Source of the DNA: Chitinispirillales bacterium
Lineage (GTDB): Bacteria; Fibrobacterota; Chitinivibrionia; Chitinivibrionales; Chitinispirillaceae
Length of the DNA: 64,000 nt
NCBI GenBank assembly: GCA_031281485.1
Contig: JAITFI010000101.1
Span: 2,373 to 66,372, forward strand
Reading direction: 5' to 3'
Below the pieces are notes generated by a model. That model made no database searches. It saw only the letters and a program-made list of their open reading frames with translations, and was not told where the DNA came from. Of the stretch, positions 3,632-40,191 are shown piece by piece. Both the position numbers and the translations under genes were made by a program. The stretch's first letter is position 1. The number at the start of each line of letters is the position of its first letter.

Positions 3632-4729
3632 TTATGTCATCCACCGCCTATCCGATGTTCCCGATACTCCTTTTACGGCTAATTCGAAATCGTCGGGATT
3701 CGAGGCGCTCTGTTTTGCCACGTCTAACGAGATCAGTTCATCCTGATACATCTGCAGCAGTGACTGGTCAAACGATTGGGATCCATACTGTGTATGGCCC
3801 TCGCTTATGGCGGGGAGGATCAAATGGCTCTTCTCAGGGTTTAGGATGTATTCGGCCACGGCGGCGTGATTTATAAGTATCTCGCAGGCGGGGATTCGGC
3901 CCCTGCCGTCTATTCTGGGGAGCAAGCGCAACGATATGATCGCCACTAAAACGTTTGACAGCACCAATCGTATCTGGTCGTGTTGGTGGGGCGGGAAGAA
4001 TGAGATTATACGCGTTATGGTCTCGGTGGTGTTCATTGTGTGCAGGGTGCTCATCACCAAATGGCCGGTATCGGCGGCGCTCATTGCGGTTTCTATGGTT
4101 TCGCAGTCGCGCATTTCGCCTATCAGGATGATGTCGGGGTCTTGGCGGAAGCAGGCGCGCAGGGCGTTGTTGAAGGAGGGGGCGTCGGAGCCTATTTCCC
4201 TTTGCGCTATGATGCTGCGTTTGTCGCGGTGCAGGAACTCTATGGGGTCTTCTATGGTGACGATATTGACGGAGGTATTGGCGTTTATGTGGTCGATCAT
4301 GGAGGCAAGAAGGGTTGACTTGCCGCTTCCGGTGGTTCCGGTGACCAAGATCATGCCGCGTTTTTTCATCGCTATATCCATTATAACGCTGGGGAGGGCG
4401 AGTTCGGAGAAGTTGGGCACCTCGACTTTGATGGAGCGGACGGCCATCGCGGGGGTGCCGCGCTGGCGGAATGCGTTTATCCTGAAGCGTCCGACGCCCG
4501 GCAGTTTGGCGGCGAAGTCTATTTCGGAGTCGCGCTGAAACTTGTTGTACTGATCGGGGGTTAGGAGCGTACGGAGCATGGCGTCCATGTTCTCGAAAGA
4601 GATGGCCTCCGAACCCATCTTGAAGAGGTCGCCGTTGAGGCGCATAATCGGGACGACGCCGCAGCGCATGTGCAGGTCGGAGGCGTTTTGGTCTATCATC
4701 GCTTTTAGCAACGCGTGGATGTTTATCAT
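3632..4729 (-). CDS. pilT: Type IV pilus retraction ATPase PilT family
   Basis: 365 aa from MINIHALLKAMIDQNASDLH. Walker A GTTGSGKST, Asp box, TGHLVMSTLHT His box. The ATG overlaps the upstream stop as ATGA. The longer Arg-rich N-terminus in the ORF track was rejected. Confidence 0.9.
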   Translation of the reverse strand: MINIHALLKAMIDQNASDLHMRCGVVPIMRLNGDLFKMGSEAISFENMDAMLRTLLTPDQYNKFQRDSEIDFAAKLPGVGRFRINAFRQRGTPAMAVRSIKVEVPNFSELALPSVIMDIAMKKRGMILVTGTTGSGKSTLLASMIDHINANTSVNIVTIEDPIEFLHRDKRSIIAQREIGSDAPSFNNALRACFRQDPDIILIGEMRDCETIETAMSAADTGHLVMSTLHTMNTTETITRIISFFPPHQHDQIRLVLSNVLVAIISLRLLPRIDGRGRIPACEILINHAAVAEYILNPEKSHLILPAISEGHTQYGSQSFDQSLLQMYQDELISLDVAKQSASNPDDFELAVKGVSGTSDRRWMT

Positions 4730-5799
4730 AACGGCAGTTCCATGAGCTTTCTGGGCGAGTGTGTGATGGCCGTCGCGCCGCCCTTTTGCAAAACGACCAT
4801 ATCTTCGATGCGTACGCCGCCGAGTCCGGGTACGTAGACGCCCGGCTCTATGGTCACTACGCTGTTTTCCGGCAATACTGTCTCCACGCCCTTCGACAGA
4901 CGCGGCCTTTCGTGTATGCGGAGGCCGACGCCGTGGCCGGTTCCGTGGCCGAAGAGTTCGCCGTACCCGCTGTCGGCGATGGAGCTTCTGGCGACCGCGT
5001 CGAGATCGCAGCACTTCATTCCGGCGTGGGCTACGAGGCACGCGCAACGCTGGGCGCGCAACACGGCGTTGTACACCGCGCGCTGCTCCTCGGAGGCTTT
5101 GCCGTAGACAAAGGTTCGCGTCATGTCTGAGCAGAAACCGTCCACGGTGCAACCGAAGTCGATCAACACGAGATCGCCGTCGTGGAGCTTACGCTCCCCC
5201 GGATGTCCGTGCGGGAGGGCGCTGCGTTCTCCGAAGAGGACGATGGTGTCGAACGCCGGCTTCTCGGAGCCGAGTTCAGCGCAAAGCCCGTCGAGCGTCC
5301 GAGCGATGGAGGCTTCCGTGACGTGCCGTTTTATGTGCGGCAAGAGCGCTTTGAGCGCCTTTTCGCCGATACGCGCCGCCGCTTTAATGCTCTCGATCTC
5401 GCTTGGGAGCTTCCGCATAGCCACGTCGGCAACATCACCCGACAGGGGCAAAAGTTTTACGCCCGGCAGCGCTTTTTTAAGCTCTTCGTACTGGTCTACC
5501 GTCACCGCGTCGGACTGTATGCCCACGACGGAGAGCGGGCGCACTCTCTTGTTGAGATACCCGAAGCCTCCGCCCTCTATAAGCGTGAACCTCCACTTGC
5601 CCTTGCGGCAGAACTCCTGCGCCGCCGCCTTGTAGCGGAAGTCGGCGAATAGGTCGAGCTGCCGCGGCGCCACGAGCAGCGTAGCGCCGGTGGAGCGGAA
5701 CCCGCTGATGTAGAAGACGTCGGCAACGTCTGTAACGAGAGCGTGCGTGCACCCGCGCTCCGATATGATCTTGCGCACAGCCCTGATCCGGGAAGCCAT
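4726..5799 (-). CDS. M24B Xaa-Pro aminopeptidase/dipeptidase
   Basis: 357 aa from MASRIRAV. Metal-ligand motifs DFGCTVDGFCSDMTRTF, GHGTGHGVG and VVTIEPGVY..GGVRIED. Confidence 0.85.
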   Translation of the reverse strand: MASRIRAVRKIISERGCTHALVTDVADVFYISGFRSTGATLLVAPRQLDLFADFRYKAAAQEFCRKGKWRFTLIEGGGFGYLNKRVRPLSVVGIQSDAVTVDQYEELKKALPGVKLLPLSGDVADVAMRKLPSEIESIKAAARIGEKALKALLPHIKRHVTEASIARTLDGLCAELGSEKPAFDTIVLFGERSALPHGHPGERKLHDGDLVLIDFGCTVDGFCSDMTRTFVYGKASEEQRAVYNAVLRAQRCACLVAHAGMKCCDLDAVARSSIADSGYGELFGHGTGHGVGLRIHERPRLSKGVETVLPENSVVTIEPGVYVPGLGGVRIEDMVVLQKGGATAITHSPRKLMELPL

Positions 5800-5818: not shown

Positions 5819-8800
5819 TCAAGGCTTCGGCTTGGCGCGCTTGCCGCCTTTTTTTGCGGGTGCGCTCTTTTTAATCCTGACTCCGGCCAACGGTCTGGAG
5901 TCTGTTGCGCGCCCTTCGGCTGCGGGCGCCTTTTTTTTTCGCCCGGAAGAGGCCGAAGGGGCCTTTTCCGGTCTGACCGCCGCAACCGCCGGCGCCGCTG
6001 TGCCACCCTCCCCGAGCTGTTGCAGCACCCCCTTTATCTCGGAAATCTTGGCCAAAAGCCGCTTGTCTTCAGGGTCGCGCAGCATCAGGCGCTCATATAT
6101 ATGCAACGCTAGCCGCGGCTGCCCCTGCTGATAGTATATGTCCGCGAGCGTGGACGTCAGCACGTGGTCGGGAAGATCGAACGGCGTGTCGCGCTCGTCG
6201 GGCCCTATAGCCCCCGCGCCGCCCGAAACCTCGCCGCCACCGCCGGAGTGAGCAACGCTCAAAACGTCAGCTCCGCCTGCATCATCAAGCGAATCAAGAC
6301 CGGAACCAAGGCGAGGTTCCGGATCAGCCCCTTCCGTCATGAAGAGCTGCCGCAATCTGTCCTCTATGTCGTCTTCCGCGCCGACCGATGGATCGGAAGC
6401 ACCTTTATCAGTAAATTTACCGGCGCGAATTTCGTCGTCCATATCTTTATACTTGCCGACGGCGAGAATTTCATCATCCATATCCTTAATCTTGCCGGCG
6501 GCGAGAATCTCGTCGTCCATATCTTTAAATTTGCCGGCAGCGAGAATCTCATCGCCCATATCCTTAATCTTGCCGGCGGCGAGAATCTCGTCGTCCATAT
6601 CTTTAAACTTGCCGGAAGCGAGAATCTCGTCGTCCATATCTTTAAACTTGCCGGCGGCGAGAATCTCGTCGTCCATATCATTAATCTTGCCGGCGGCGAG
6701 AATCTCGTCGTCCATATCATTAATCTTGCCGGCGGCGAGAATCTCATCGTCCATATCCTTAAACTTGCCGGCATCAATAACGCTATCCGTACCGGCAATG
6801 CCATCAATATTAATAACATCGCCGATACCGAGCAAGTCTTCAACCGGTTCGACAACTTGATCCTCACCAACAAATTCGCTTATATCAACAACACTATCAG
6901 TATCAATAACATTATTCGTATCATCAACAGTATCAATTATATTACTTATATCAACAACACCATCAACAACCGTATCAGTAACAGGAACAGGAACATTATC
7001 CGTATCAATAACACTGTTATCAACAGTATCACTTATATTACTTATATCAATAACACCATCAATAACAGTACCACTAGCATCATCCGTATCGCTAAGAATA
7101 TCAACCTCGCCCGTCTTTTTGACACCGACAAAGTTTTCCATATCAAAAACATCAACAACTGCGTTCGGATCAACCTCATTGCTTGCGTTCACGACATCTT
7201 GTATGCTGACGACGTCGTCCGTAATATCCGGTTCCATACCGATAGCGTTATCAACCTCGTCCGTCTTTTCAATACCCAAAAGTTCATTCATATCAACAAC
7301 TTCAACAACCCCGTCCGCGCCGACCGCGTTATCGGCGCTGACGACATCTTCTATCTGAACTACGTCGCCGACGCCGAGCAAATCTTCAGCTGTATCAACT
7401 GCGCCAACGGTATTATCCGTATCATCAGGCGTCAGATCATTTTGACTCTGCTCAATGACCGTTTCCGGCGGCTCCGGTGATTGAGCTAAATTTAAGCCAT
7501 CCACACTATCGACCTCAACAATCCCGTCGGCGCCCACCGCGTCATCGGCGCTGACGAGATCGTCTACATTAACAACGCCATCCGCGCTAATCACGCTATC
7601 CGTATCAATGCCGTCAACGGCGGTATCGGTACCAATTACCACGTCAGCATCATAAGCGCCGTCAACTTTATCAACACCGTCGATATCAACTCCCATAACC
7701 TCTTCAAGCGCCATAGCCGTGGTAGTATCCGACTCATCCCCTCCAAACATCTCCGCCAGCCGCGCTTCCACATCGTCGCCTGTCATATCCGCCCCGTCTA
7801 TCTCACCTGCCGCCGAAGCGTCAACCGGAATGCTGTCTGTAGGCGCCTCGGTAGTTTTTGCGGCCTCCGTTTCGGCTTTGGCTTTTGCTTCGTCTTCGTC
7901 TATGACCAACGGTTCCTTTGGCATGGACGGATCGGATTTGCCGAACATTGTGTCTATGCGGTCTTCGATATCGTCCGATGTAGGCGCCGCCATTGCGATG
8001 TCGACGCCGTTTTCGTCGAGTATTATGGAGGATGGGAGTTTTCCCGCTGTTTTCGCGTCGGTGTCGGTATCGGGCGGCGCGGCCTCGTCCGCGGGAGCGG
8101 CGTCGTTCCCGTCAACGACCAGCGCCGGTTCATCGGGTATATCCGGCGGCGGCGCGGCGGCGGCGTCAAACATGGCGCTCAGCCGGTTCTCTACGTCGTC
8201 ACCGGAGACCGACGTTTGCTCCGCTTCAAGAGCGGCGGCGAGGGCGGCCTCGTCCGCCTCTTCGGAAGATGCCTGAAGGTCAGCCGGCGGCGTTGCGGTC
8301 TCCGCCTCGAGGGCGGCGGAGAGGGCGGCCTCGTCCGCTTCGGCGGCCGCCGGGGCGGTTCCGAACATGACGTCGAGTTTGTTCTCGATGTCGTCGCCGG
8401 AGATCTCCGCCATTGCGGCGTCAATTTCCGGGGACGCCGGCAGGTCAAGCTCTTTAGTCGCGTCGTCCGCTATATTTAGGTCTTGGGCCGCGCCGGCCAT
8501 ATCTTCGGGCACGGCCGCGGGCGGCAGCGTGCCGCCGAAGAGCGCGTCTAAGCGGTCGGCCACCGCGTTGCCGCTCGGTACATCTTCTCCGAGGGCGGCG
8601 GAGGTATCGCCCGCCGGCATGGCCGCCGGCGGCAGGACCGTCTGTCCGCCGAAGAGTTCGTCGAGCTGGTCGACCACGGCGTTGCCGCTCGGGGCCATAG
8701 GGCTGAGATCTACCGAAGCGGAGTCCGGTATGTCGTCGGCGGATAGGACGGACTGGCCCCCGAAGAGTTCGTCGAGCTGGTCGGCCTCGGCTTCGCCGCT

Positions 8801-10702
8801 CGGGGCCGCGAGGCTGAGGTCTACCGAAGCGGAATCCGGTATGTCGTCGGCGGATAGGACGGATTGGCCTCCGAAGAGCTGGTCGAGCTGGTCGGCCTCG
8901 GCGCCTTCGCCGTCGCCCGGGGCCATTGGGCTGATATCGATCGGAGCGGAAGCCGGCACGTCGACCGACAAAACCGACGCGCCGCCGAAGAGCGCGTCCA
9001 ACTGGTCAACCACGGCGTTGCCGCTGGAGTAGCCGCCGCCGTCGGCAGCCGACAGCGCTGAATCGTCGGTCAGCATGGACATCCCCGTCGGTTCCGGTTC
9101 TCCAGTTAACACAGATCCGCCCGTTAATAATGATTCATCTGCCGGCACAGACGGCGACGCCCCGCCGAACATCGTGTCAAGCTGCCCCGCGACGTCGTCC
9201 CCGCTCGGATGCCCGTCTTGGCCGCCGCCCATAGCAGCTAATACGGACTCCTCCGTTAATCCGGATCCGTCAGTTAATACAGATTCATCTTGCGGCACAG
9301 ACGGCGCAGGCGCAGCACCGCCGAACATCGTGTCAAGCTGTCCCGCGACGTCGTCCCCGCTCGGATGCCCGTCTTGGCCGTCGCCCATAGCAGCTAATAC
9401 GGACTCCTCCGTTAATCCGGACTCATCCGTTAATACTGATCCGTCTACAGCCAACTGTTCATCACCAGACGCCTGCGATTCCGGCCCCGGCTCCCCGAAC
9501 ATAGCGTCGAGCCGCCCCGCAAGGTCGTCCCCGCTGAGTTGGTCGTCAGCGCCCTCGCCATCCGCGCCCATAGCCTGCAGAGCGGACTCGTCCATCATTA
9601 TAGAATCTTCGTCTAACACCGGCTGTTCCGCCAAAGCGGCCCCTTCGGCCATCTCTGACTCAGCCAGCATTTCCGCCTCCGCCCCGCCGAATAGCGAGTC
9701 AAGCTGTCCGGCGACGTCATCCCCGCTGATTTGGCTGTCCGGTGGCGGGGCCGTGCCCACAACCACGTCGTTGGTCGGCACGGATTCCGATTGCGCCTCT
9801 CCGCCGAACATGGCTTCGAGTTGTCCCGCCACGTCATCCCCGCTCGGCTGGCTGCCATCCGGTCCAGCGGCGGGCGGCGGCGCCGACATCGGCGGCGGTG
9901 GGGACATCTGCATCGGCGGCGGAGGAGGAGGCGGCGGCATTTGCATCTGCGGAGGCGGCGGAGGCGGAGGCATAGGCATGGGCATAGGCATGGGCATCGC
10001 CTGCCCCTCAGCGCCACCGAAGGCTTCGTTGAGTTCTCCGATGCCTTCATCAAATCCCTGCGGCGGTTCCGGAGGCGTCAAGAACATCGCGTCGAGGTCG
10101 GCTCCGCCGCCGGCTTTGCCTTCCTGCTGCGCTTTAGCCTTGTCGCTGAATAGGGAGTCCAACTGGCTTTCGATCTGGCTTTCGAGGCTGCCCCCGTCGG
10201 GCGCTGACGCCGCCGTTTGCGCGCGGCTTGCGGGCGGCGGCGCTATCATTACGGGCTTTATCCCCAGTATCTCCGCTGCGGTGCCCCTCTCCCGTTGCTT
10301 GTTTTTGGCGGCGCAGACTCTGAGTTCGGCGTTGTCGGGCTCCATGTCGGAGAGGATGGCGTACAAACTGCCCGCCGCGGCGGCGCGTCCCGACGCTAGG
10401 TATATGTCGGCCATCATCCGCAACGCGACCGGGTTCCGTATATCGGCGGTGCAGACCTTCATGGATTCATCGGCGGCGGCGGCGAGATTGCCCTGCTCCT
10501 TGTAGCAACGGGCAAGCACCAAGCGCCCCGTGACGTAGTCTGGGTGCTCGTTCAGCCCCGCGCGGCACAACTCCACCGCCCCTTTAAGATCGCCGCTTTC
10601 GCGGTATAAATCCGCTAAGCGCGAGAACGCCCGCGACTTGGGGTTGCCCGCCAACTTCTGCTCAAGCTCCCGTATCGCCTGGCTCTGCCTCTTGGATCCC
10701 AT
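5819..10702 (-). CDS. Giant (1,627 aa) TPR-capped acidic repeat protein
   Basis: Start MGSKRQ at 10702 with GGAGAGAGG SD. N-terminal and C-terminal TPR-like helices, a Pro-rich tract, at least 15 copies of an SGDDxxxQLDxMFGG-type motif, a D/V/I-rich region, 13-aa tandem repeats and a K-rich tail. Confidence 0.85.
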   Translation of the reverse strand: MGSKRQSQAIRELEQKLAGNPKSRAFSRLADLYRESGDLKGAVELCRAGLNEHPDYVTGRLVLARCYKEQGNLAAAADESMKVCTADIRNPVALRMMADIYLASGRAAAAGSLYAILSDMEPDNAELRVCAAKNKQRERGTAAEILGIKPVMIAPPPASRAQTAASAPDGGSLESQIESQLDSLFSDKAKAQQEGKAGGGADLDAMFLTPPEPPQGFDEGIGELNEAFGGAEGQAMPMPMPMPMPPPPPPPQMQMPPPPPPPPMQMSPPPPMSAPPPAAGPDGSQPSGDDVAGQLEAMFGGEAQSESVPTNDVVVGTAPPPDSQISGDDVAGQLDSLFGGAEAEMLAESEMAEGAALAEQPVLDEDSIMMDESALQAMGADGEGADDQLSGDDLAGRLDAMFGEPGPESQASGDEQLAVDGSVLTDESGLTEESVLAAMGDGQDGHPSGDDVAGQLDTMFGGAAPAPSVPQDESVLTDGSGLTEESVLAAMGGGQDGHPSGDDVAGQLDTMFGGASPSVPADESLLTGGSVLTGEPEPTGMSMLTDDSALSAADGGGYSSGNAVVDQLDALFGGASVLSVDVPASAPIDISPMAPGDGEGAEADQLDQLFGGQSVLSADDIPDSASVDLSLAAPSGEAEADQLDELFGGQSVLSADDIPDSASVDLSPMAPSGNAVVDQLDELFGGQTVLPPAAMPAGDTSAALGEDVPSGNAVADRLDALFGGTLPPAAVPEDMAGAAQDLNIADDATKELDLPASPEIDAAMAEISGDDIENKLDVMFGTAPAAAEADEAALSAALEAETATPPADLQASSEEADEAALAAALEAEQTSVSGDDVENRLSAMFDAAAAPPPDIPDEPALVVDGNDAAPADEAAPPDTDTDAKTAGKLPSSIILDENGVDIAMAAPTSDDIEDRIDTMFGKSDPSMPKEPLVIDEDEAKAKAETEAAKTTEAPTDSIPVDASAAGEIDGADMTGDDVEARLAEMFGGDESDTTTAMALEEVMGVDIDGVDKVDGAYDADVVIGTDTAVDGIDTDSVISADGVVNVDDLVSADDAVGADGIVEVDSVDGLNLAQSPEPPETVIEQSQNDLTPDDTDNTVGAVDTAEDLLGVGDVVQIEDVVSADNAVGADGVVEVVDMNELLGIEKTDEVDNAIGMEPDITDDVVSIQDVVNASNEVDPNAVVDVFDMENFVGVKKTGEVDILSDTDDASGTVIDGVIDISNISDTVDNSVIDTDNVPVPVTDTVVDGVVDISNIIDTVDDTNNVIDTDSVVDISEFVGEDQVVEPVEDLLGIGDVINIDGIAGTDSVIDAGKFKDMDDEILAAGKINDMDDEILAAGKINDMDDEILAAGKFKDMDDEILASGKFKDMDDEILAAGKIKDMGDEILAAGKFKDMDDEILAAGKIKDMDDEILAVGKYKDMDDEIRAGKFTDKGASDPSVGAEDDIEDRLRQLFMTEGADPEPRLGSGLDSLDDAGGADVLSVAHSGGGGEVSGGAGAIGPDERDTPFDLPDHVLTSTLADIYYQQGQPRLALHIYERLMLRDPEDKRLLAKISEIKGVLQQLGEGGTAAPAVAAVRPEKAPSASSGRKKKAPAAEGRATDSRPLAGVRIKKSAPAKKGGKRAKPKP
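6411..6772. repeat. About 9.5 tandem copies of a 39-bp coding repeat
   Basis: Unit catatccttaatcttgccggcggcgagaatctcgtcgtc, reiterated head to tail. It encodes AAGK(F/I)KDMDDEIL inside the giant ORF. Confidence 0.9.
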
Positions 10703-10882
10703 TACCTCTCTCCCAAAACGATCTGCCCGTAAAAGACAACTTTCCAGAATACTATTAAATATAGTATCGGGCGGTACGGACGGCGCAAATATGTGCACAA
10801 ACTTTTTTTATTGAAAAAGTATTGACTTTTTGCGTACATTTTATTATCTTTCTATTTGAATGTCCGTTCGCGTTCAGAAAAT

Positions 10883-10957
10883 GCGGCCATAGCTCAATTG
10901 GATTAGAGCATCTGACTACGGATCAGAAGGTTAGGGGTTCGAGACCCTTTGGCCGTA
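10883..10957 (+). tRNA. tRNA-Arg (anticodon ACG)
   Basis: Manual fold: acceptor GCGGCCA/TGGCCGT (G1-U72 wobble), D arm GCTC-AATTGGATTA-GAGC, anticodon stem TCTGA/TCAGA with loop CTACGGA, T arm AGGGG-TTCGAGA-CCCTT. Confidence 0.8.
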
Positions 10958-10989
10958 TTTTTCTAAGCGCCATCGCAAAGGAGGCTGTC

Positions 10990-11337
10990 ATGAACATCTC
11001 TTCCGCCGCCCCGGTTTCCGGCATGAAAGCGGCAACGCAGAGATTGGACGTCACCGCCCACAACGTGGCGAACGTGAACACGAAGGGGTTCAAGGCTCAG
11101 CGCGCCGAGCAAACCGACGTCGTGAGGAGCTCCGGCCAAACCGCGGCGCGTGGCGACACCTACGAGCGCGGCGCCGGGACGCGCGTATACGACGCCGGGA
11201 GGGAGCGCCAGACCCCGGAAGACATGAACAAACAGATGACCGATATGATCACCGAGCGGAACACCTACGGGGCGAACGCCAAGGCGACGAAGATGAGGGA
11301 CAGGATGGAGGAAGAGACTATTAATTTGGTCGCTTGA
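10990..11337 (+). CDS. FlgC-like mini flagellar rod-family protein (115 aa)
   Basis: AAGGAGG SD. N-terminal SGMKAATQRLDVTAHNVANVNTKGFK matches the rod-protein N motif. C-terminal DMITERNTYGANAKATKM matches the rod C-terminal motif. The middle region is missing. Confidence 0.7.
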   Translation: MNISSAAPVSGMKAATQRLDVTAHNVANVNTKGFKAQRAEQTDVVRSSGQTAARGDTYERGAGTRVYDAGRERQTPEDMNKQMTDMITERNTYGANAKATKMRDRMEEETINLVA

Positions 11338-11387: not shown

Positions 11388-11463
11388 GCCGCTTTAGCTC
11401 AGTTGGTAGAGCAAGGGACTGAAAATCCCTGTGTCCGCAGTTCGATTCTGCGAGGCGGCACCA
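11388..11463 (+). tRNA. tRNA-Phe (anticodon GAA), CCA encoded
   Basis: Manual fold: acceptor GCCGCTT/AGGCGGC, anticodon stem AGGGA/TCCCT with loop CTGAAAA, T arm CGCAG-TTCGATT-CTGCG, then ACCA. Confidence 0.92.
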
Positions 11464-11667: not shown

Positions 11668-12720
11668 TTAGTTCGCCTTAAAAATTATCTTCTGTGCGCT
11701 CCTTAAGCTGTTCTTGTGGCGGTAGTGGGTCAGCATAGGGGTCTTCCATCCGGCGATGTCCATGATCTCGCGTTCGAGGTTGCCTAACTCATAGAGGTCA
11801 GAACTGCTGATATGGCGGAGGTCGTGCAGGCGCAGGTCTAGGATACCTGCCTTTTTAAGGACGTACCCCCAGTCGTGGCGCAGATTGTGATGGATATAGT
11901 ACCTCTCCCCCACTTGTTTATAGAACAAATGCGGGCAGTCGACAGGGATGGACTGAAAGTACCCACGTAGACACTCCGGTACGGGCTTGTAAATCGGCAT
12001 GTCCGCTTTGCTGTCGGGAATATAGACAGTGTTGGTGTCAGGGTTGTACTGCTCCCGCTTCGCAAAGACCAATTCCGAGACGCGGCAAGGAACGAGTAAC
12101 ATGTATAGTATAATGGGCAAAATTTGGGGACGGTGCTCTGCAATAGTTTTCAAGAGCAGTCCCCGTTCCGCGTCATCCAAGTACCTGTCTCTTGGCTTAG
12201 TCTCCAGCTTCGGAAACCTCAACTTCGTGATGGGGTTTTTCTGTATCAGCTCCAAAGCAAGCAGGTAATTGAAAACCGCCCGAATCATAATAGTGTACCC
12301 GTTGATTATGGAGTTAGAGTGACTCTGCTGAACTTCCCCGCGCCATTTTAACAACCGTGCGGGGACATCTTGCAGTGAGAACTCTCCATAAGTCCGCTTT
12401 AAGAAGTCGTAGCGTTTTATGTGGTGGGGGCTATCCTTACCCCGCACCTTTAAGTTCTCCACATACAAATCTACTGCCTCACCGAAAGTCCTGACCTGCG
12501 GGTCATCCGTCCCGCTACTAAAGGTTCTATCTATCGGCTCTGTTGTCAAAGAACTTGGGACGGGAGTTAAAAGAGAGTTTTTTAACTCGGCCTCCCGCGC
12601 CTTAGCCTCTCGCAACAACCCCCGAAACCGCTCTGCTTTCTGTTTCGGATAGGGGCATCCCGATACCCGAAAAGAAACCGTGATTAGATAGAGGCCTTCG
12701 CTTAATTTTTTAATGGCCAT
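11668..12720 (-). CDS. int: Tyrosine recombinase / phage integrase
   Basis: 350 aa. RVSEL Arg, HDLRH box and THYRH Tyr region. About 200 bp downstream of tRNA-Phe. Confidence 0.9.
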   Translation of the reverse strand: MAIKKLSEGLYLITVSFRVSGCPYPKQKAERFRGLLREAKAREAELKNSLLTPVPSSLTTEPIDRTFSSGTDDPQVRTFGEAVDLYVENLKVRGKDSPHHIKRYDFLKRTYGEFSLQDVPARLLKWRGEVQQSHSNSIINGYTIMIRAVFNYLLALELIQKNPITKLRFPKLETKPRDRYLDDAERGLLLKTIAEHRPQILPIILYMLLVPCRVSELVFAKREQYNPDTNTVYIPDSKADMPIYKPVPECLRGYFQSIPVDCPHLFYKQVGERYYIHHNLRHDWGYVLKKAGILDLRLHDLRHISSSDLYELGNLEREIMDIAGWKTPMLTHYRHKNSLRSAQKIIFKAN

Positions 12721-13824: not shown

Positions 13825-14856
13825 CTATGTGTCTATGCTAGTGGATATATGTTTCATCTCTTCTATTAGATAGCTATTTAGCTGTGTTCTCATGCTCACA
13901 TTTTGGGGCAATAAGTTAGTTTTAATTAACTCTGTAACAGCATTAATGTAGTTTTCCAAAACACCTTCAAGTGTATTCAAAACTTCTAATATCCCACTTA
14001 CTATGTCGGCATCTCTATAGCTGAAGTCCGCGAATTTAATTTCAGTCGCATTAGTAACTGACAGCGCTCTTGCATTATATCTTATGTAAGGTCGTGTAAC
14101 TTTGTGCATTAAGCCCTTAGCATAAGTTATCTCGTTATTTCGTACATAAACTTTCGCAGGTAAAACTGTACACGGTATCAAACAGCTATCAAAACTTATA
14201 AGTCCGTCAAAATCTTTACTTATAAAATCATGGTCGAGGTGTAGATTCTTATGATTAACTTTTAAACACTGCCAAAAGTTATCAAGGTAACATTCAGTAA
14301 TTGTCCCGTCGGTATCAAGTTCACTATAAGTATAAAGATATAACCGCATACCATACAAACCTAACAAATACCTTTCCCAAGGTTTTAGTCTTTCCTTAGA
14401 TAATTTACCACAACGCATAGTTTCGTGACGTTCTGTAATATTAGGAATTAGCCATATAACCGCAATATCTTTATTTTTATATGCAGTCATCCTCTTTTTT
14501 ATAGTGTCTATGTCTATATTGCTTTTTTGTATTTCAATCGCAACTTTAACTCCGTTAATTTCAGCATAAACATCAGGTCTGACTTCTTTAAGGTATAGTT
14601 CCAACGCGACATTTTTACAAGTTTCAGTTTTTGAGTTCAAATAATCATATACAGCAGTCTTTATCTTGTAGTGAGTCTCGCTTTCTCCATGTCCGTAGCA
14701 ACAGTCGCACTTCACTTTGTGCGCAAAATGCGGAATCTTTACATGTCCTTTTTTCAGAGTTAGTTTAGAACCACATTCCGGGCAGTAGTAAGAATCGCCC
14801 TTCTTAGCTTCTTTAGCAAGGCATCTCTCTTTGTTTTCATTTTGAGCTACAAGCAT
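13825..14856 (-). CDS. CoiA-like (competence protein CoiA family) nuclease-domain protein
   Basis: 343 aa. YYCPECGSKLTLKKGHVKIPHFAHK..C...ESETH..K....RPDVYAEINGVKVAIEIQKSNI....Y.NKDIAVIWL follows the CoiA family pattern. The C-terminal ~170 aa is unassigned. Confidence 0.7.
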   Translation of the reverse strand: MLVAQNENKERCLAKEAKKGDSYYCPECGSKLTLKKGHVKIPHFAHKVKCDCCYGHGESETHYKIKTAVYDYLNSKTETCKNVALELYLKEVRPDVYAEINGVKVAIEIQKSNIDIDTIKKRMTAYKNKDIAVIWLIPNITERHETMRCGKLSKERLKPWERYLLGLYGMRLYLYTYSELDTDGTITECYLDNFWQCLKVNHKNLHLDHDFISKDFDGLISFDSCLIPCTVLPAKVYVRNNEITYAKGLMHKVTRPYIRYNARALSVTNATEIKFADFSYRDADIVSGILEVLNTLEGVLENYINAVTELIKTNLLPQNVSMRTQLNSYLIEEMKHISTSIDT

Positions 14857-17113: not shown

Positions 17114-17563
17114 TCAGTCCCCCGCAAACTCCAACCCGAAAGTTGTCATCAGGCGGTCGATCTCCCAGGCGTATTCGTCGCGTTCGTCCCTCGAAAGAGC
17201 GTGCCCGACGACGCAGGCGACAATCCCATTGGCCTCTTGTTCAAAGAACACGTTTTGGATCCCGTAGTACGTCTCGCCGTCCTCATCGTCCTTGTGAGAC
17301 GACGCGCACGCCGTCGATGAACGGCACAACCTCGTCAAAGCCTTCTGAGCTTCCTCTTCGGGTATCGCAAGGACTTTGGCAAGGTCTGCCGCCGTCAACA
17401 AGTGGCCTTTGTGGGCGTACAGATGCCAAAACGCCCGTTGAACGTTTTCATCGTCCGTCATGGGGGCGACCGCGCATACGTATCTGACGTCCGTAATCGA
17501 GCGGACTTCGTCTTTCGGCACGAACTGCAAGCGCCAATTTTTCCTGATTTCGTTGAATTTCAT
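17114..17563 (-). CDS. Hypothetical phage early protein
   Basis: 149-aa ORF. The start overlaps the upstream gene's stop by 4 nt. Confidence 0.55.
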   Translation of the reverse strand: MKFNEIRKNWRLQFVPKDEVRSITDVRYVCAVAPMTDDENVQRAFWHLYAHKGHLLTAADLAKVLAIPEEEAQKALTRLCRSSTACASSHKDDEDGETYYGIQNVFFEQEANGIVACVVGHALSRDERDEYAWEIDRLMTTFGLEFAGD

Positions 17564-18519
17564 AATACGGCTCCTTTGTTTATTGTTTGAATTATCCCTG
17601 TCTTACAGAGTTTTTCCAAAATGCGTGCGCCTCCGCGTTCCGTTATTGCTGAGGTGTAATGATTTACTTTGATCTCGCCTCTTTGGTACGGCCTATTAAT
17701 TTCAATCAGATACCCTGCCTCTTGCGCATAGTCGGTAGGTCGGTTTCGAGCGCCATGGTTCTTCCTGACCCACCCCCATTCACGAAGATGGTCAAACAGT
17801 TGGATCGGCCCGATGTACTTGTTCAGCCGATGGGCATTGACAAACGTCTCGATGTCCAAGGCGCCTTCTGTTGAGTCCTTCTTCATAATTAGATTAAACG
17901 CCTTGACTTTAGGAGCGTATTTTGTAGTTATCTCGTTCGCCGCCCGTCTCATCAACGCATTTTTCCTGCCTATCGCGTCCTGTTGGGCATCCACTTTGGC
18001 TTCCAGTTCGATGTTTCGGTCGATCTGCGCAAGCAAGTGAACCACCGCCTCCCGATAATTGGTGGGAAGGGCGGGTTGCGCTAACTGCTTGCGGTATGCT
18101 TTCTCGGCGGCGATGAAATACTTCCGAATCCGACGCCCCGTCTCTGTCTGTTCCATCATGCAGACTTCTTTGGCGGCATCCACGGTGAACCAGTAGTCCT
18201 TAGTAGGGCGGCCTCCTAGTTTCCCCCCGATTGGGGGAAAACCCTCTGGGACGTCGGAATCGCCGTTTTCGGTGTCAGATACCGCTACAGAGTTATTGAC
18301 AATCTTGTCAAAAACCCCAAAATCATCGTTTTCCGTGAAATCGGCGGTCTTAACCTTAAACCACGAGCTGAAGTCTTTTTTCGACCCCAAAGCCGACCAC
18401 AACGTCCTGGCGTCGACCTTGCCGACGTCATCAGCCGTCCAATCGATGGGAATAATTTCTGCGGAACCTCCTCCGCTGAGTGCGGAGACTTCTGTTACTG
18501 CTCCGGTAGGCGCAATCAT
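17560..18519 (-). CDS. Phage antirepressor (AntA-like N-terminal domain + KilA-C-like C-terminal domain)
   Basis: Start MIAPTG with AAGGGAGGG SD. GGRPTKDYWFTVDAAKEVCMMEQTETGRRIRKYFI is AntA-like. The C-terminal half resembles KilAC antirepressor domains. Confidence 0.7.
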   Translation of the reverse strand: MIAPTGAVTEVSALSGGGSAEIIPIDWTADDVGKVDARTLWSALGSKKDFSSWFKVKTADFTENDDFGVFDKIVNNSVAVSDTENGDSDVPEGFPPIGGKLGGRPTKDYWFTVDAAKEVCMMEQTETGRRIRKYFIAAEKAYRKQLAQPALPTNYREAVVHLLAQIDRNIELEAKVDAQQDAIGRKNALMRRAANEITTKYAPKVKAFNLIMKKDSTEGALDIETFVNAHRLNKYIGPIQLFDHLREWGWVRKNHGARNRPTDYAQEAGYLIEINRPYQRGEIKVNHYTSAITERGGARILEKLCKTGIIQTINKGAVL

Positions 18520-18779
18520 GCAACCCTCCCTTGTTGTTGTAGTGGCTCCCTTGTAAAAGTTAGATGGGGCGGCGTGGCACAAGGGAGAAAGCAGCTTCGG
18601 TTTCGATGGCCGAAGCCCCGCACCCATCTACTACAGTACGACACTCAACGACCAAATTTTTAACTAAATCTTTCTTTCGGGGTATTTTCTTCCTATAATA
18701 TACCGCCGTCACCCCGGATACCGCCAAGCCTAAGTTCAACTTAGCCTAATATACCGCAGTCACCACGGATACTCACCGC

Positions 18780-21589: not shown

Positions 21590-22900
21590 ATGGGAATCTT
21601 CACGACATTGACGGCGTCCAAACAGACGGAGAAGCGCAGCGCAGGCATCCCCGACTTCCTCATGGGGAACGCTGTGGGGCGTTCAGGCATTGCCGTCAAC
21701 GAGGCGTCTGCCCTCAGCCTCAGCCCTATTTTCAGTGTGTTATCGCGGATCGCAGGCATCATTTCGATGCTACCATTTAAGACATATAAAGGCAACATCG
21801 ATGGTACGCTCTCGCGGGTAGAACACCCTGCCTTGCGGCTATGGATGAAGGATCCAAACGAAAATTTTAATGCCTACCAACTCAAGTATGCTACAGTTTC
21901 CAACCTCTTATTGCATGGTTGTGGAGCGCTTGAAATTGTTTTTGGTAAAAATGGTTTCCCCGAAGCCTTAATTCCGATCCACCCGACAAATATTCAAGTA
22001 GTCAATAATACTCAGGGGAAGATTTCGTACCGTGTAACCAGAGACGGCGGGACACAAGCAGTTTTACAAAACCACCAGTTATTACTTTTTAAATTATTTC
22101 CGAAAAGTGACGGTTCGTGGGTGAGTCCGCTGACGACTCACAGGGCTATCTTTGAAGAGGCGTTAGCCCTACGGGAGTTTAGCTCGACTGTGTTCAGCCA
22201 GGGTTGTAACCCAGCGGGCATCGTCACGAATTTGCCGTCCGATTTGACAGAAGAAAGTAAAACCACCCTCGTAGAATCTTTAAGGCAGTATGAAGGCCTC
22301 AGTCGGTCGCACAAGTTGATGCTACTCGAAGGCGATATGAAATTTGAACGGGTAGCTGCACCGTCAACGGATTTACAATATGTGGAAACTCGCCGTTTTC
22401 AAATCAGCGAATTCGCTAGGTTATACAATGTACCGTTATTTTTACTCGCGGAGACCGAAAAAAGTACGTCGTGGGGGTCTGGATTGGAATCACAAAGTTC
22501 CGGCTTCGTGCAGTATGTCCTTAGCCAGTACCTTGTTAATATAGAGTCCGAGCTGAACAAGAAATTATTCAGTGTCGATGACGATTCTGTGTTCGTAAAG
22601 GCGGTAGTTGACGGCCTATTGCGCGGCAACGTCAAAGACAGAATGGAGGCGTACAAGACGGCGGCTGGCTTGGGGGTTTTAAGCATCAACGAAATCCGCG
22701 ACCTAGAAGAGCGCAACGCCCTCCCTGACAAAAAATTAGGTGAGGCTAGACTCGTACCAGTGAATTACCAGAGCCTTGAGCGCGCCGTGAATGGCACTCC
22801 AAGTAATATAGACTCTACTATACCTGATGATAACGAATCCGACAAGGATTCTGATGACAAAACGGACAAAAAGGAAAGGAATGACGAAGATGTCGACTAA
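21590..22900 (+). CDS. Portal protein (HK97 family)
   Basis: 436 aa with full-length portal-like pattern, directly upstream of the prohead protease and capsid genes. Confidence 0.85.
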   Translation: MGIFTTLTASKQTEKRSAGIPDFLMGNAVGRSGIAVNEASALSLSPIFSVLSRIAGIISMLPFKTYKGNIDGTLSRVEHPALRLWMKDPNENFNAYQLKYATVSNLLLHGCGALEIVFGKNGFPEALIPIHPTNIQVVNNTQGKISYRVTRDGGTQAVLQNHQLLLFKLFPKSDGSWVSPLTTHRAIFEEALALREFSSTVFSQGCNPAGIVTNLPSDLTEESKTTLVESLRQYEGLSRSHKLMLLEGDMKFERVAAPSTDLQYVETRRFQISEFARLYNVPLFLLAETEKSTSWGSGLESQSSGFVQYVLSQYLVNIESELNKKLFSVDDDSVFVKAVVDGLLRGNVKDRMEAYKTAAGLGVLSINEIRDLEERNALPDKKLGEARLVPVNYQSLERAVNGTPSNIDSTIPDDNESDKDSDDKTDKKERNDEDVD

Positions 22901-23709: not shown

Positions 23710-24933
23710 ATGAACGTGGAACAACTTAAAAGAAATCGTAGTTCCATTGTGCAGGAAATGAAGTCTATTCAGGCAGGCGTTGACGCGAGGGGCAGTGATG
23801 CTACGATTACTCCCGAAGAGTTGACGAAATTTCAGGATCTCAGATCCAAGGTCGAAGCGCTCGATAATTCCATCGCGACCGCAGAGTACGTCTCGAAAGT
23901 CGATGCTGAGGTCGCCTTGCGAGCCGACCCTGTTCAAAGTGAGGAGAGGGCGAAGTCTTTCGGCGAGTTCATACAGCGATTCATCCGCGACCCGAACTCT
24001 CCGCGTGTAGATTCTCGCGACATGACCCAGTCGAACCCCCTGCAGAGCGGCCTTGCTGTCCCGCCTGAGTACGAGAACATGATCCGTGCGTTGGATCCCT
24101 CTGAGGCGATTGTGCGTCCTAGGGCGACTGTTATTGCAGGTAGCGGCGCATCCCCTGACGCCACGTTCAAAATTACGGCGTTCAATCAAGGAACCGGGGG
24201 GAATCAGTCGGTCTACGGCGGGGTGACCATGAGTTTTGTCGCAGAGAACGCGACGCGGCCTAACGCTGGGGACATCAAACTTCAGGAAATCTCGCTGGAG
24301 CCGCAGCCGTTGGTTGGGTACATGGACATTAGCAAGCAGCTCCTTGAAAACAGTTCGGCAATCGGCATCTTCGCTGAGAAACAGCTTAAACTTGCTGGAA
24401 TTTCCGTCGAAGAGCGCAGCTTCATCGGAGGCTCAGGAATCGGCGCTCCAACTGGGCTCTTAAATCACCCCTGCGCGGCGGTAGCGGCTAGGACGACCGT
24501 TGGCCAAATCACTTACGACGACATCCTGAACATGGTCTCCAAGTCCTACGGGAATTCCAACGGCTACGTATGGATTGCTTCCCGCACGGCGCAACCGACC
24601 CTCAGCAAGCTCAAGGACACCGCTGGCAACCTGATTTGGAGTTTCAACGGCGCGATAACGGGCGCTCCTCCGACTTTGTATGGCATCCCCGTCTTCTTCA
24701 GCGAACGACTTCCTGCTGTGGGTACGAGCGGAGACTTGATCCTCGCGGATCTCTCGAAGTACATTATCCGCGACGGTTCTAGCCCTCGACTCTTCCTTGA
24801 CCCTTATACTAGGGCGATAAATAATTTCACACGCCTTTATGTGTCTTGGAACGTGGACGCCAAGCCGTGGCTGACGGCTCCCATCACCTGCGAAGACGGC
24901 GTAGCCCGCTCTCCGTTCGTGAACTTGTCGTAA
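23710..24933 (+). CDS. Major capsid protein (HK97 fold family)
   Basis: 407 aa, AAGGAGG SD. N-terminal coiled delta-like domain, then a capsid-like body. Position after the protease. Confidence 0.85.
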   Translation: MNVEQLKRNRSSIVQEMKSIQAGVDARGSDATITPEELTKFQDLRSKVEALDNSIATAEYVSKVDAEVALRADPVQSEERAKSFGEFIQRFIRDPNSPRVDSRDMTQSNPLQSGLAVPPEYENMIRALDPSEAIVRPRATVIAGSGASPDATFKITAFNQGTGGNQSVYGGVTMSFVAENATRPNAGDIKLQEISLEPQPLVGYMDISKQLLENSSAIGIFAEKQLKLAGISVEERSFIGGSGIGAPTGLLNHPCAAVAARTTVGQITYDDILNMVSKSYGNSNGYVWIASRTAQPTLSKLKDTAGNLIWSFNGAITGAPPTLYGIPVFFSERLPAVGTSGDLILADLSKYIIRDGSSPRLFLDPYTRAINNFTRLYVSWNVDAKPWLTAPITCEDGVARSPFVNLS

Positions 24934-39710: not shown

Positions 39711-39726
39711 GTTTTTCACCCCTAGA

Positions 39727-40191
39727 TTAAATGTCGAATCCTGATTTTTCGAGTTCCCCCTGCTCGACGACCTTGGGGGCCGGAGGCAGTCCTCTTTTAC
39801 GGACAAGCGGATTCAGGAAGAGCTTCTCGCCCAAGGTAGCTATCAGGCGTACCTTGGAATCTATCTTACTGTGGATGACGAGCCTGTCTACGGGGTTGGG
39901 AACGACAGGATCCTCGGTCAAGAGCCGTCTCAGGTCGGCCACGTCGGAGTACAAGAGGCAGAGCTGGGCGATGATCTCGCCGTCCGCAGAGGTTATGTAA
40001 TCCGTACCCTTGTATATCTTTGCGAGGGCAGCCCACTTCTCCTTCGCTATCGGGTCGGCTTCCACTTCGGGCGGCATCGCGATTCGGGATGTGCCGAGTA
40101 TTATAGGGACGGTGGTTCGCTCGGCTATACGCTTCTTAGACATACGGTTCTTGGCTAGCTGATTCTCTATGCACGTCGTTTTGACACCCAT
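39727..40191 (-). CDS. terS: Terminase small subunit (P27-like)
   Basis: 154 aa, AAGGAGG SD. PPEVEADPIAKEKWAAL...DGEIIAQLCLLYSDVADL pattern of P27-family small terminases. Confidence 0.7.
   Translation of the reverse strand: MGVKTTCIENQLAKNRMSKKRIAERTTVPIILGTSRIAMPPEVEADPIAKEKWAALAKIYKGTDYITSADGEIIAQLCLLYSDVADLRRLLTEDPVVPNPVDRLVIHSKIDSKVRLIATLGEKLFLNPLVRKRGLPPAPKVVEQGELEKSGFDI

Follow-up and report, generated by a model that had tools for sequence, protein, structure and literature searches.

What does a very large, acidic bacterial protein do with sixteen copies of one short motif, and is the motif itself what selection preserves? Both questions are raised by a gene in a 64,000-nucleotide stretch of contig JAITFI010000101.1 (assembly GCA_031281485.1) from a Chitinispirillales bacterium of the phylum Fibrobacterota; we refer to this whole stretch as the window, and all coordinates are given in it. 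The gene lies on the minus strand (5819-10702) and encodes a protein of 1,627 amino acids (aa) in which tetratricopeptide repeat (TPR) elements enclose a long, acidic, intrinsically disordered region (IDR). A first-pass annotation, made from the letters of the sequence alone, had noticed a recurrent amphipathic motif in that region and had read the protein as a hub with the architecture of the polar organisers FimV and HubP. To our knowledge, few bacterial short linear motifs have been well defined, whereas eukaryotic signalling depends centrally on motifs of this kind within disordered regions. We find that the motif is a previously undescribed bacterial short linear motif, real and strongly constrained. 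The reading that we favour, with a probability of roughly 55%, is that of a multivalent scaffold in the cytoplasm that docks a partner through its short helices.

The motif and its conservation

The motif comprises 15 residues with the consensus [VIP]-[ST]-G-[DES]-D-[VI]-x-x-[RQK]-[LIM]-[DE]-x-[LMI]-F-G, of which the peptide QPSGDDVAGQLDAMFGGE is an example. It can be read as an amphipathic helix of about 10 residues that is preceded by an S/T-G-x-D cap, with a hydrophobic face formed by V3, L7, L10 and F11, a conserved R or Q at position 6 and a closing F-G. Position 6 is Q in the copies of the window protein and R in 69% of the instances found in the family. A loose regular expression for the core finds 16 copies in the window protein, against a mean of 0.03 and a maximum of 1 in 1,000 shuffled sequences, and a strict expression finds 11, against none in 1,000 shuffles. 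A hidden Markov model (HMM) derived from the family also recovers 16 copies, with scores of 6.5-22.4 bits. Together with two partial copies beyond these 16 (ADLDAMF and ELNEAFG), this agrees well with the earlier count of about 17.

The conservation of the motif has sharp boundaries. We compared 39-aa windows around 318 non-redundant instances, which come from 74 proteins. Positions -2 to +12 carry a relative entropy of 1-4 bits, and in the flanks it is at most 0.5 bit and mostly below 0.25, which is background. Comparison of the window protein with its closest relative (L004) gives 89% identity at the motif positions versus 59%, with many indels, in the rest of the IDR; the N-terminal TPR, the C-terminal hairpin and the basic tail are 95%, 93% and 94% identical, respectively. 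Additionally, there is a divergent subfamily (P0083, P0104, P0119 and others) in which the TPR is much changed and the basic tail is absent, and which keeps canonical copies such as VTGDDIEARLDDLFG. Purifying selection thus acts at the level of the motif, as had been proposed from the divergence pattern of the copies within this single gene. We also looked for orthologues that keep the TPR ends and lose the motif, and found at least one copy in 160 of 161 full-length-like proteins. As orthologues keep the motif along with the ends, the motif must be considered real and constrained.

In these 161 proteins, the median number of copies is 5 (range 0-14 at a score of at least 9 bits), the median spacing between copies is 74 aa and the first copy is found at a median position of aa 224. 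Within the family range, the highest values belong to the window protein and its nearest relative, and 16 copies is the maximum that we have seen. Part of the array arose through recent duplication, since Tandem Repeats Finder (TRF) detects units of 111 bp (3.6 copies, 77% matches) and 156 bp (2.1 copies, 89% matches) within it. The near-identical duplications of about 120 bp described in the first-pass annotation are consequently real as duplications, and their size and identity have to be replaced by these values. The last copy of the array, copy 16, occupies a conserved place some 60 aa ahead of the hairpin: its counterpart is DD[VI]Q[ED]KIRQLF in P0003 and P0006, and the close variant SVDEIEERLQRLF in P0002. 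A third tandem repeat in the gene, made of nine 39-bp units at 6421-6772 and encoding GKFKDMDDEILAA, is clade-specific, is also present in L005 and is unrelated to the docking motif.

The motif outside the window protein

A profile of 30 columns, built from 82 instances of the motif, was compared exhaustively with 1.84 billion (1.84e9) representative proteins. It gave 191 matches at E<=1e-3, of which 150 also passed E<=1e-10, and the window protein took first place (16 stretches). The N-terminal TPR and/or hairpin pattern of the family is present in 123 of the 137 newly listed matches, and most of the other 14 share this architecture, either diverged or as fragments. The motif is nearly confined to one protein family, that is, to about 200 representative proteins of the 1.84 billion. 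A different architecture was found in P0108 (L068 1825-4542), a protein of 905 aa with seven 55-aa repeats, each containing VSNEDLASQLDELFGEPGG, a C-terminal hydrophobic anchor and no TPR; a gene with a weak MshEN domain lies about 5.5 kb from it. A eukaryotic LisH-WD40 protein also appeared among the matches, with a weak score, and looks spurious.

The earlier statement that the motif does not belong to a described family is supported by three collections. Neither Pfam nor NCBIfam has a model that matches the disordered part of the window protein, and the motif profile gave nine weak, unrelated matches at E<=10 among all PDB chain sequences of at least 20 residues, peptide chains of fewer than 20 residues being outside this search. 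None of the other open reading frames (ORFs) of the window reached 6 bits with the motif HMM, and none in about 0.9 Mb of related loci reached 12 bits. The motif recalls the binding motif of the beta-clamp, QL[SD]LF, which we considered and rejected: the window copies, Q-L-D-x-[LM]-F, have one extra residue, and their Q is mostly R across the family.

Gene and protein organization

The longest ORF over the locus extends from 10798 to 5819 on the minus strand. It contains an in-frame ATG at 10702, preceded by the Shine-Dalgarno-like sequence GGGAGAGAGG, and orthologues share the resulting start, MGSKRQ; the product, which ends at a stop codon in 5819-5821, is therefore the 1,627-aa protein of the first-pass annotation. 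It is identical to the hypothetical protein MDR2592978.1, from a metagenome-assembled genome (MAG) of an uncultured Chitinispirillales bacterium of termite-gut type. The parts of the protein, the copies of the motif and the two genes downstream are collected in Table 1.

TPR-like helices had been suggested for both ends of the protein, and Pfam models identify them. In the N-terminal domain, TPR_19 (49.1 bits, cut-off 25) and TPR_14 (41.2 bits, cut-off 23.5) match at aa 24-130, and, close to the C-terminus, TPR_2 matches at aa 1518-1546, with related models extending to 1547. In the whole protein, at E<=0.1, the scan returned TPR-type models and DUF6584 and nothing else. The N-terminal domain conforms to the TPR superfamily, whose profiles recognise tandem helix-turn-helix repeats of 34 residues, and its matches in a PDB sequence search are consensus TPR proteins and OGT. 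The region between the two ends is acidic, as had been noted, and somewhat longer (about 1,355 aa) than the 1,300 aa or so first estimated. The protein contains 339 D+E versus 92 K+R, with a net charge of -247, and its last 60 aa have the opposite composition (17 K/R versus 3 D/E). The GC content of the gene swings from 0.445 at 6501-7500, a D/V/I/N-rich part, to 0.68 at 8001-9000, an A/G/P-rich part, in step with the amino-acid composition.

The window protein has a hydrophilic N-terminus and no membrane-spanning segment on the Kyte-Doolittle scale (maximum of 1.31 in a 19-residue window), and no transmembrane or signal segment was found among 59 full-length family members, in which the same maximum was at most 1.48. 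A LysM-like peptidoglycan-binding domain was not found with Pfam at E<=0.1. Similarly, the FimV C-terminal domain model of NCBIfam, which we take to be TIGR03504, was not found at E<=1 in the whole protein or in its C-terminal 143 aa, where only generic TPR equivalogs far under their cut-offs appeared. As these three features are absent, the protein is probably soluble or peripheral in the cytoplasm rather than a landmark that spans the membrane.

Structure was predicted with AlphaFold2 (AF2) for a construct with an internal deletion, in which aa 1-348 were joined to aa 1438-1627 so that four copies of the motif were retained; the alignment consisted of full-length orthologues. The predicted local distance difference test score (pLDDT) is 91-98 in aa 1-150, which form eight paired TPR helices and a short helix (142-146) at EILGI, and 91-96 in the C-terminal hairpin and its capping helix (native aa ~1510-1562). 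The modelled parts of the IDR have scores of 35-69. Within them, short helices are predicted at the motif copies (173-186, 289-299, 328-338 and native 1445-1453) with a pLDDT of 53-69, the flanks being mostly at 35-46; the helix of copy 2, for instance, has 57-69 versus 40-51 in the neighbouring 10-residue blocks. In the usual picture, such modelled helices look like helices that form upon binding. We also considered whether the N-terminal TPR and the hairpin might be one domain split by a giant inserted loop. In Desulfuromonas mini-homologues of the family, which are described below, both parts are about 20 aa apart and, as in the window protein, are predicted with a pLDDT above 90; Foldseek alignments longer than ~130 columns had a root-mean-square deviation of at least 10 A.

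Table 1. Coordinates of the gene, the parts and motif copies of its product, and the genes downstream (positions in the window).
Feature	Position	Strand	Basis
Whole gene: TPR / acidic IDR / hairpin / basic tail	5819..10702, stop codon included	-	ORF, translation, identity to MDR2592978.1
N-terminal four-repeat TPR, aa 1-150, with conserved EILGI capping helix	10253..10702	-	Pfam, AF2, 95% identity to L004
Acidic intrinsically disordered region with motif array, aa 151-1505 (~1,355 aa)	6188..10252	-	Composition, AF2, 59% identity to L004 outside the motifs
C-terminal TPR-like helical hairpin and capping helix, aa 1506-1560, PDHVLTSTLADIYYQQGQPRLALHIYERL...	6023..6187	-	Pfam TPR_2, alignment A1, AF2, 93% identity to L004
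Pro/Ala linker and basic tail, aa 1561-1627, conserved RPLAGVRIKK	5822..6022	-	Composition, orthologue conservation
Motif copy 1 (degenerate), SLESQIESQLDSLFS, aa 172-186	10145..10189	-	HMM 6.5 bits; inside AF2 helix 173-186
Motif copy 2, PSGDDVAGQLEAMFG, aa 286-300	9803..9847	-	HMM 22.4 bits; AF2 helix 289-299
Motif copy 3, ISGDDVAGQLDSLFG, aa 325-339	9686..9730	-	HMM 22.3 bits; AF2 helix 328-338
Motif copy 4, LSGDDLAGRLDAMFG, aa 389-403	9494..9538	-	HMM 19.8 bits
Motif copy 5, PSGDDVAGQLDTMFG, aa 447-461	9320..9364	-	HMM 21.8 bits; within 156-bp tandem duplication
Motif copy 6, PSGDDVAGQLDTMFG, aa 499-513	9164..9208	-	HMM 21.8 bits; within 156-bp tandem duplication
Motif copy 7, SSGNAVVDQLDALFG, aa 559-573	8984..9028	-	HMM 15.0 bits; nearly all inside 111-bp array (array end 9025)
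Motif copy 8 (degenerate N-cap), DGEGAEADQLDQLFG, aa 597-611	8870..8914	-	HMM 7.6 bits; within 111-bp array
Motif copy 9, PSGEAEADQLDELFG, aa 634-648	8759..8803	-	HMM 16.0 bits; within 111-bp array
Motif copy 10, PSGNAVVDQLDELFG, aa 671-685	8648..8692	-	HMM 20.0 bits; within 111-bp array
Motif copy 11, PSGNAVADRLDALFG, aa 709-723	8534..8578	-	HMM 20.0 bits
Motif copy 12, ISGDDIENKLDVMFG, aa 767-781	8360..8404	-	HMM 17.6 bits
Motif copy 13, VSGDDVENRLSAMFD, aa 832-846	8165..8209	-	HMM 19.3 bits
Motif copy 14, PTSDDIEDRIDTMFG, aa 907-921	7940..7984	-	HMM 21.5 bits
Motif copy 15, MTGDDVEARLAEMFG, aa 973-987	7742..7786	-	HMM 19.3 bits
Motif copy 16, GAEDDIEDRLRQLFM, aa 1441-1455	6338..6382	-	HMM 11.8 bits; AF2 helix at native aa 1445-1453
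Nine tandem 13-aa units, GKFKDMDDEILAA, aa 1311-1428	6419..6772	-	TRF 39 bp x9.0, 89% matches; regular expression
Downstream gene 1: M24 Xaa-Pro peptidase (Creatinase_N + Peptidase_M24)	4726..5790	-	Pfam E=8e-67
Downstream gene 2: PilT/PilU-family type IVa pilus ATPase	3632..4729	-	NCBIfam TIGR01420, 441 bits (cut-off 319)

Distribution of the family

Homologues share the N-terminal TPR, the C-terminal hairpin element, the basic tail and the motif, the latter amid acidic sequence that is otherwise unalignable. The N-terminal TPR carries the signature FSRLAD...GRCY...DxRN and, in alignments and tblastn searches, has 39-95% identity over ~150 aa in more than 40 loci. The hairpin, PDHVLTPTLADIYYQQGQPxLAxxIYxRL, has 12 invariant columns in alignment A1, with all of which the window sequence agrees, and the basic tail, RPLxGV[RK][IL]KK, is RPLAGVRIKK in the window protein and is also found in P0002-P0019. 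Another trait of the family, the presence of at least two copies of [ST]G[DES]D[VI]xx[RQK][LIM][DE]x[LMI]F in the disordered middle, is likewise shown by the window protein. In several orthologues (P0009, P0013, P0014, P0018, L040 and L055), a second short conserved element, G-x-GFY-[TN]-[VLI]-[ST]-G-[ED]-[DE]-A, recurs in the disordered region; it is absent from the window protein.

A scan with the hairpin alignment of a database with one genome per GTDB species located 54 Fibrobacterota loci (L004-L057) from Chitinispirillia, Chitinivibrionales and Fibrobacteria, some of them in MAGs labelled Fibrobacter or Fibrobacteraceae; two additional loci (L001 and L002) are metagenomic. Except for L009, all orthologues with a complete N-terminus contain the motif. 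A homology search for cultured or characterised members, made with a Fibrobacter-labelled MAG orthologue, returned metagenomic and MAG members and no F. succinogenes entry; the sole cultured-organism name in it was Okeania, with a weak generic-TPR match. Searches of the literature on Fibrobacter together with PilT, tetratricopeptide or type IV found nothing on the window protein. To judge from these searches, the family is uncharacterised. It spans the phylum Fibrobacterota and has members in a few further lineages, also uncultured.

More distant relatives are much smaller. Mini-versions of the family are found in Desulfobacterota (L058, L059, L060 and P0021-P0037). The mini-homologues have ~290-335 aa, with the TPR directly followed by the hairpin and no repeated motif; that of a Desulfuromonas MAG (L058) has 288 aa, and an M24 peptidase gene is located about 1 kb downstream. 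In Syntrophus and delta MAGs, separate hairpin-only proteins of 64 aa are encoded just upstream of M24, and efp is the next gene in L060.

Gene neighbourhood

The gene forms an operon with two downstream genes: its stop codon is separated by 28 nt from the M24 peptidase gene, whose own stop codon is overlapped by the ATG of the PilT/PilU gene (ATGA). The operon with pilT proposed in the first-pass annotation is real and is kept across Fibrobacterota, with the nuance that the M24 peptidase gene stands between the two genes. M24 adjoins the TPR gene in all Fibrobacterota loci (L001-L057), being partial at contig ends in L006, L016 and L051, and the complete order, TPR-IDR, M24 and PilT, is found in 45 of the 54 genome loci and in L001 and L002. 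Outside the phylum, motif-less relatives adjoin M24-efp, and the motif-bearing P0020 and P0083 adjoin accB, with neither PilT nor M24. Because these outside relatives adjoin M24, efp or accB, the linkage to PilT is specific to Fibrobacterota and the M24/efp/accB housekeeping neighbourhood is the older one.

The PilT-family ATPase has AVAEYILNPEK at the place of AIRNLIRE, the canonical PilT motif, and its C-terminus looks more PilU-like, and it is assigned at the PilT/PilU level only. All genomes of Fibrobacteres are reported to encode type IV pili and two to three PilT paralogues (PMC4704652), and a role in attaching Fibrobacterota cells to cellulose or chitin has been proposed for such pili (PMC4704652).

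Upstream of the TPR gene, a PF01467 cytidylyltransferase-like gene, for which an initial identification as coaD was replaced by this broader one, is directly adjacent in 28 of 38 loci and absent in the clade of the window, where tRNA genes and a prophage are found. In the window, a prophage-like element (11388-39806) lies immediately upstream of the promoter region of the gene, beside a tRNA-Phe (11388-11463), and its insertion may explain why the PF01467 gene is missing. Its minus-strand genes include an integrase (11668-12720), a CoiA-like nuclease (13825-14856), an AntA/KilAC antirepressor (17560-18627) and a large terminase (37908-39806). It also has genes for a portal (21590-22900), a capsid (23710-24933) and a minor-tail or tape-measure-like protein (28583-31420; PhageMin_Tail 32.8 bits, just under the cut-off of 33.2), and its GC content drops to 0.35-0.43 at 13-15.5 kb. 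The segment at 10882-11337, between the two tRNA genes, comprises a tRNA-Arg (10882-10958, plus strand) and an ORF of ~115 aa from ~10990 that has only the Flg_bb_rod N-terminal motif of flagellar rod and hook proteins.

A proposed scaffold for a docked partner and its alternatives

The multivalent scaffold or hub of the first-pass annotation remains, in our opinion, the best reading of these data. In this model, the conserved folded ends, the four-repeat N-terminal TPR and the C-terminal hairpin, would serve in assembly or targeting, the basic tail may hold the protein on an anionic surface, for example a membrane or a nucleic acid, and the fast-evolving polyanionic disordered chain would display 2-16 copies of one short linear motif. 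Each copy would fold upon binding the same pocket of a folded partner, so that one protein would collect numerous copies of this partner or, if the partner is an oligomer, hold it with high avidity. The most obvious candidate for this partner in Fibrobacterota would be the hexameric PilT/PilU ATPase of the same operon. We put its chance at one in five or six, since the M24 linkage is older and some motif-bearing relatives lack an adjacent PilT; in other lineages such relatives adjoin accB, which makes PilT just one of the candidates. A more elaborate proposal, which we consider unlikely as a whole, is that of a new motif/receptor system that clusters or sequesters the PilT/PilU-type hexamer, or another oligomeric motor, on a polyanionic cytoplasmic tether anchored by the TPR ends and the basic tail. 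Avidity would then control pilus retraction or adhesion in Fibrobacterota, the number of copies (2-16) would tune capacity, and the protein would be a soluble, independently arisen counterpart of FimV/HubP.

Some observations weigh against docking of a partner, or at least against PilT as that partner. The motif is kept in L003, L020 and L030, where PilT is not adjacent, as well as in the accB-linked P0020 and P0083, and the older linkage is to housekeeping genes. In L009 (Chitinispirillales Spi319_bin3; gene end near 10400), one of the few loci without PilT downstream of M24, the canonical array is replaced by ESVIEPEAVVE-type repeats, and only degenerate copies, such as NIEDEIAAMFDE, are found. 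Moreover, the AF2 model, judged by pLDDT and secondary structure alone, gave no confident docking of the motif on the folded parts of the protein itself.

This last result bears on the possibility that the protein is its own partner. In that case, the motif helices would bind the TPR or the hairpin in trans. As each chain would bring many ligands and one or two receptors, a matrix or condensate would result, a PopZ-like or multivalent SH3/PRM-like network, which would then recruit other proteins. TPR domains commonly bind short peptides or helices, the motif and the TPR ends occur together in nearly all listed motif-profile matches, and the conserved C-terminal helix of the motif-less Desulfuromonadales mini-homologues is predicted beside the TPR with a pLDDT of 75-92, which hints at helix binding in cis. 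By contrast, the pLDDT of 53-69 of the motif helices in a construct that contains both ends is typical of undocked helices, and the seven copies of P0108, in a protein with no TPR, fit an external partner rather than self-binding. We regard self-assembly as improbable.

It is also conceivable, with a rather low probability, that the function is tied to the older M24/EF-P/accBC neighbourhood, so that the TPR-hairpin core would work with the Xaa-Pro peptidase or in housekeeping and the motif would recruit a broadly conserved partner unrelated to pili. The constant presence of M24 beside the gene in every examined Fibrobacterota locus, its proximity to the gene in L058 and to the 64-aa hairpin-only proteins (with efp in L060), and the position of P0020 and P0083 beside accB are what would be expected in such a case. 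However, housekeeping gene order can be inherited without functional coupling, the M24-linked mini-homologues lack the repeated motif, and the gene that is translationally coupled to M24, and kept with it in most Fibrobacterota genome loci, is PilT.

A very unlikely third alternative is an array that binds CheY-type receivers. The FliM N-terminal helix has the consensus LSQxEIDALL and the CheZ C-terminus SQDQVDDLLDSLGF, or (S/N)QDxVDDLLxSLGF, and FimV has been reported to bind the receiver protein PilG; the motif could be kin to these helices and bind PilG or CheY-like response regulators. By eye, 6 of 14 positions agree with the CheZ C-terminus, which is a tentative lead, and in both sequences an amphipathic helix comes after an S/T-x-x-D/E cap. 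Nevertheless, neither CheZ nor FliM was among the nine PDB matches described above, and the FliM N-terminal models of Pfam gave no match to the window protein. In addition, the family is found in Fibrobacter- and Fibrobacteraceae-labelled MAGs, and Fibrobacteraceae are reported to have lost flagella and chemotaxis (PMC4704652).

Membership in the FimV/HubP family of polar landmarks is hardly credible. The long acidic repeat-containing region, the C-terminal TPR-like element and the proximity of pilT made it attractive. FimV and HubP share a LysM-like periplasmic domain, a transmembrane segment, an extensive acidic cytoplasmic region and a C-terminal FimV-domain TPR (PMC12918733). Of these four sequence features, the window protein has the acidic region and lacks the other three, and we have rejected the assignment. 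Finally, it can practically be dismissed that the array is a low-complexity expansion of repeats in which the motif has no function of its own, or that the gene was called in error: although the 111-, 156- and 39-bp tandem duplications are recent and repeat content varies even between close relatives, the motif persists in nearly all family proteins amid flanks whose conservation is no higher than background, identity in the folded ends is 93-95%, the start is conserved and preceded by a Shine-Dalgarno sequence, and the ORFs on the opposite strand are repeat shadows without homologues.

The favoured scaffold would have several implications. The motif is an unusually clean case, as it combines a 15-residue capped amphipathic helix, sharp conservation boundaries and up to 16 copies in one family. 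Identifying its partner could reveal how Fibrobacterota, which are major fibre degraders, organise their pilus machinery, and the motif and its receptor would give a compact natural pair for avidity-based scaffolding. If a hub role were confirmed, polyanionic multivalent hubs would have arisen independently of FimV/HubP.

Comparison with known systems

Among the systems closest to the window protein are the mini-homologues of Desulfuromonadales, such as P0036 of Pelovirga terrestris, annotated as "tetratricopeptide repeat protein". Their N-terminal TPR is homologous to that of the window protein and their hairpin is the same (TLADLYxxQG), with an M24 gene near in L058. They differ from the window protein in their small size, in the absence of the repeated motif, in a C-terminal helix of their own (LNxWLENIQKRRxNV) and in that PilT is not adjacent, and they are likewise uncharacterised.

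The window protein resembles polar hubs in principle and is unrelated to them in sequence and topology. Like FimV of Pseudomonas and HubP of Vibrio, it is very large, combines a long and strongly acidic region that contains repeats with a TPR-type element at its C-terminal end, is linked, genomically or functionally, to components of type IV pili and is presumed to be a multivalent recruiter. Unlike them, it lacks a signal peptide, a LysM domain and a membrane-spanning segment, and no sequence relationship is detectable; it has, in addition, the four-repeat N-terminal TPR and the basic tail. The repeats also differ, being a sharply defined 15-residue motif in the window protein and acidic repeats of the 46-aa type in FimV/HubP.

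Analogies of principle can be found further away. The LD motifs of paxillin are multiple short acidic amphipathic helices (LDxLLxxL type) that, within a disordered scaffold, each dock one and the same type of helical-bundle partner. These scaffolds and acidic transactivation-type helices share with the window protein the repeated amphipathic helix and its hydrophobic i, i+4, i+7, i+8 pattern, although paxillin-type scaffolds are eukaryotic, unrelated and of another consensus. Among bacteria, the C-terminal scaffold of RNase E, like similar IDR hubs, is also a disordered region with short conserved elements to which folded partners are recruited. Its microdomains differ from each other, are present in a single copy and serve each a different partner, whereas the window protein repeats one motif up to 16 times, an arrangement that would imply avidity or stoichiometric clustering of one partner.

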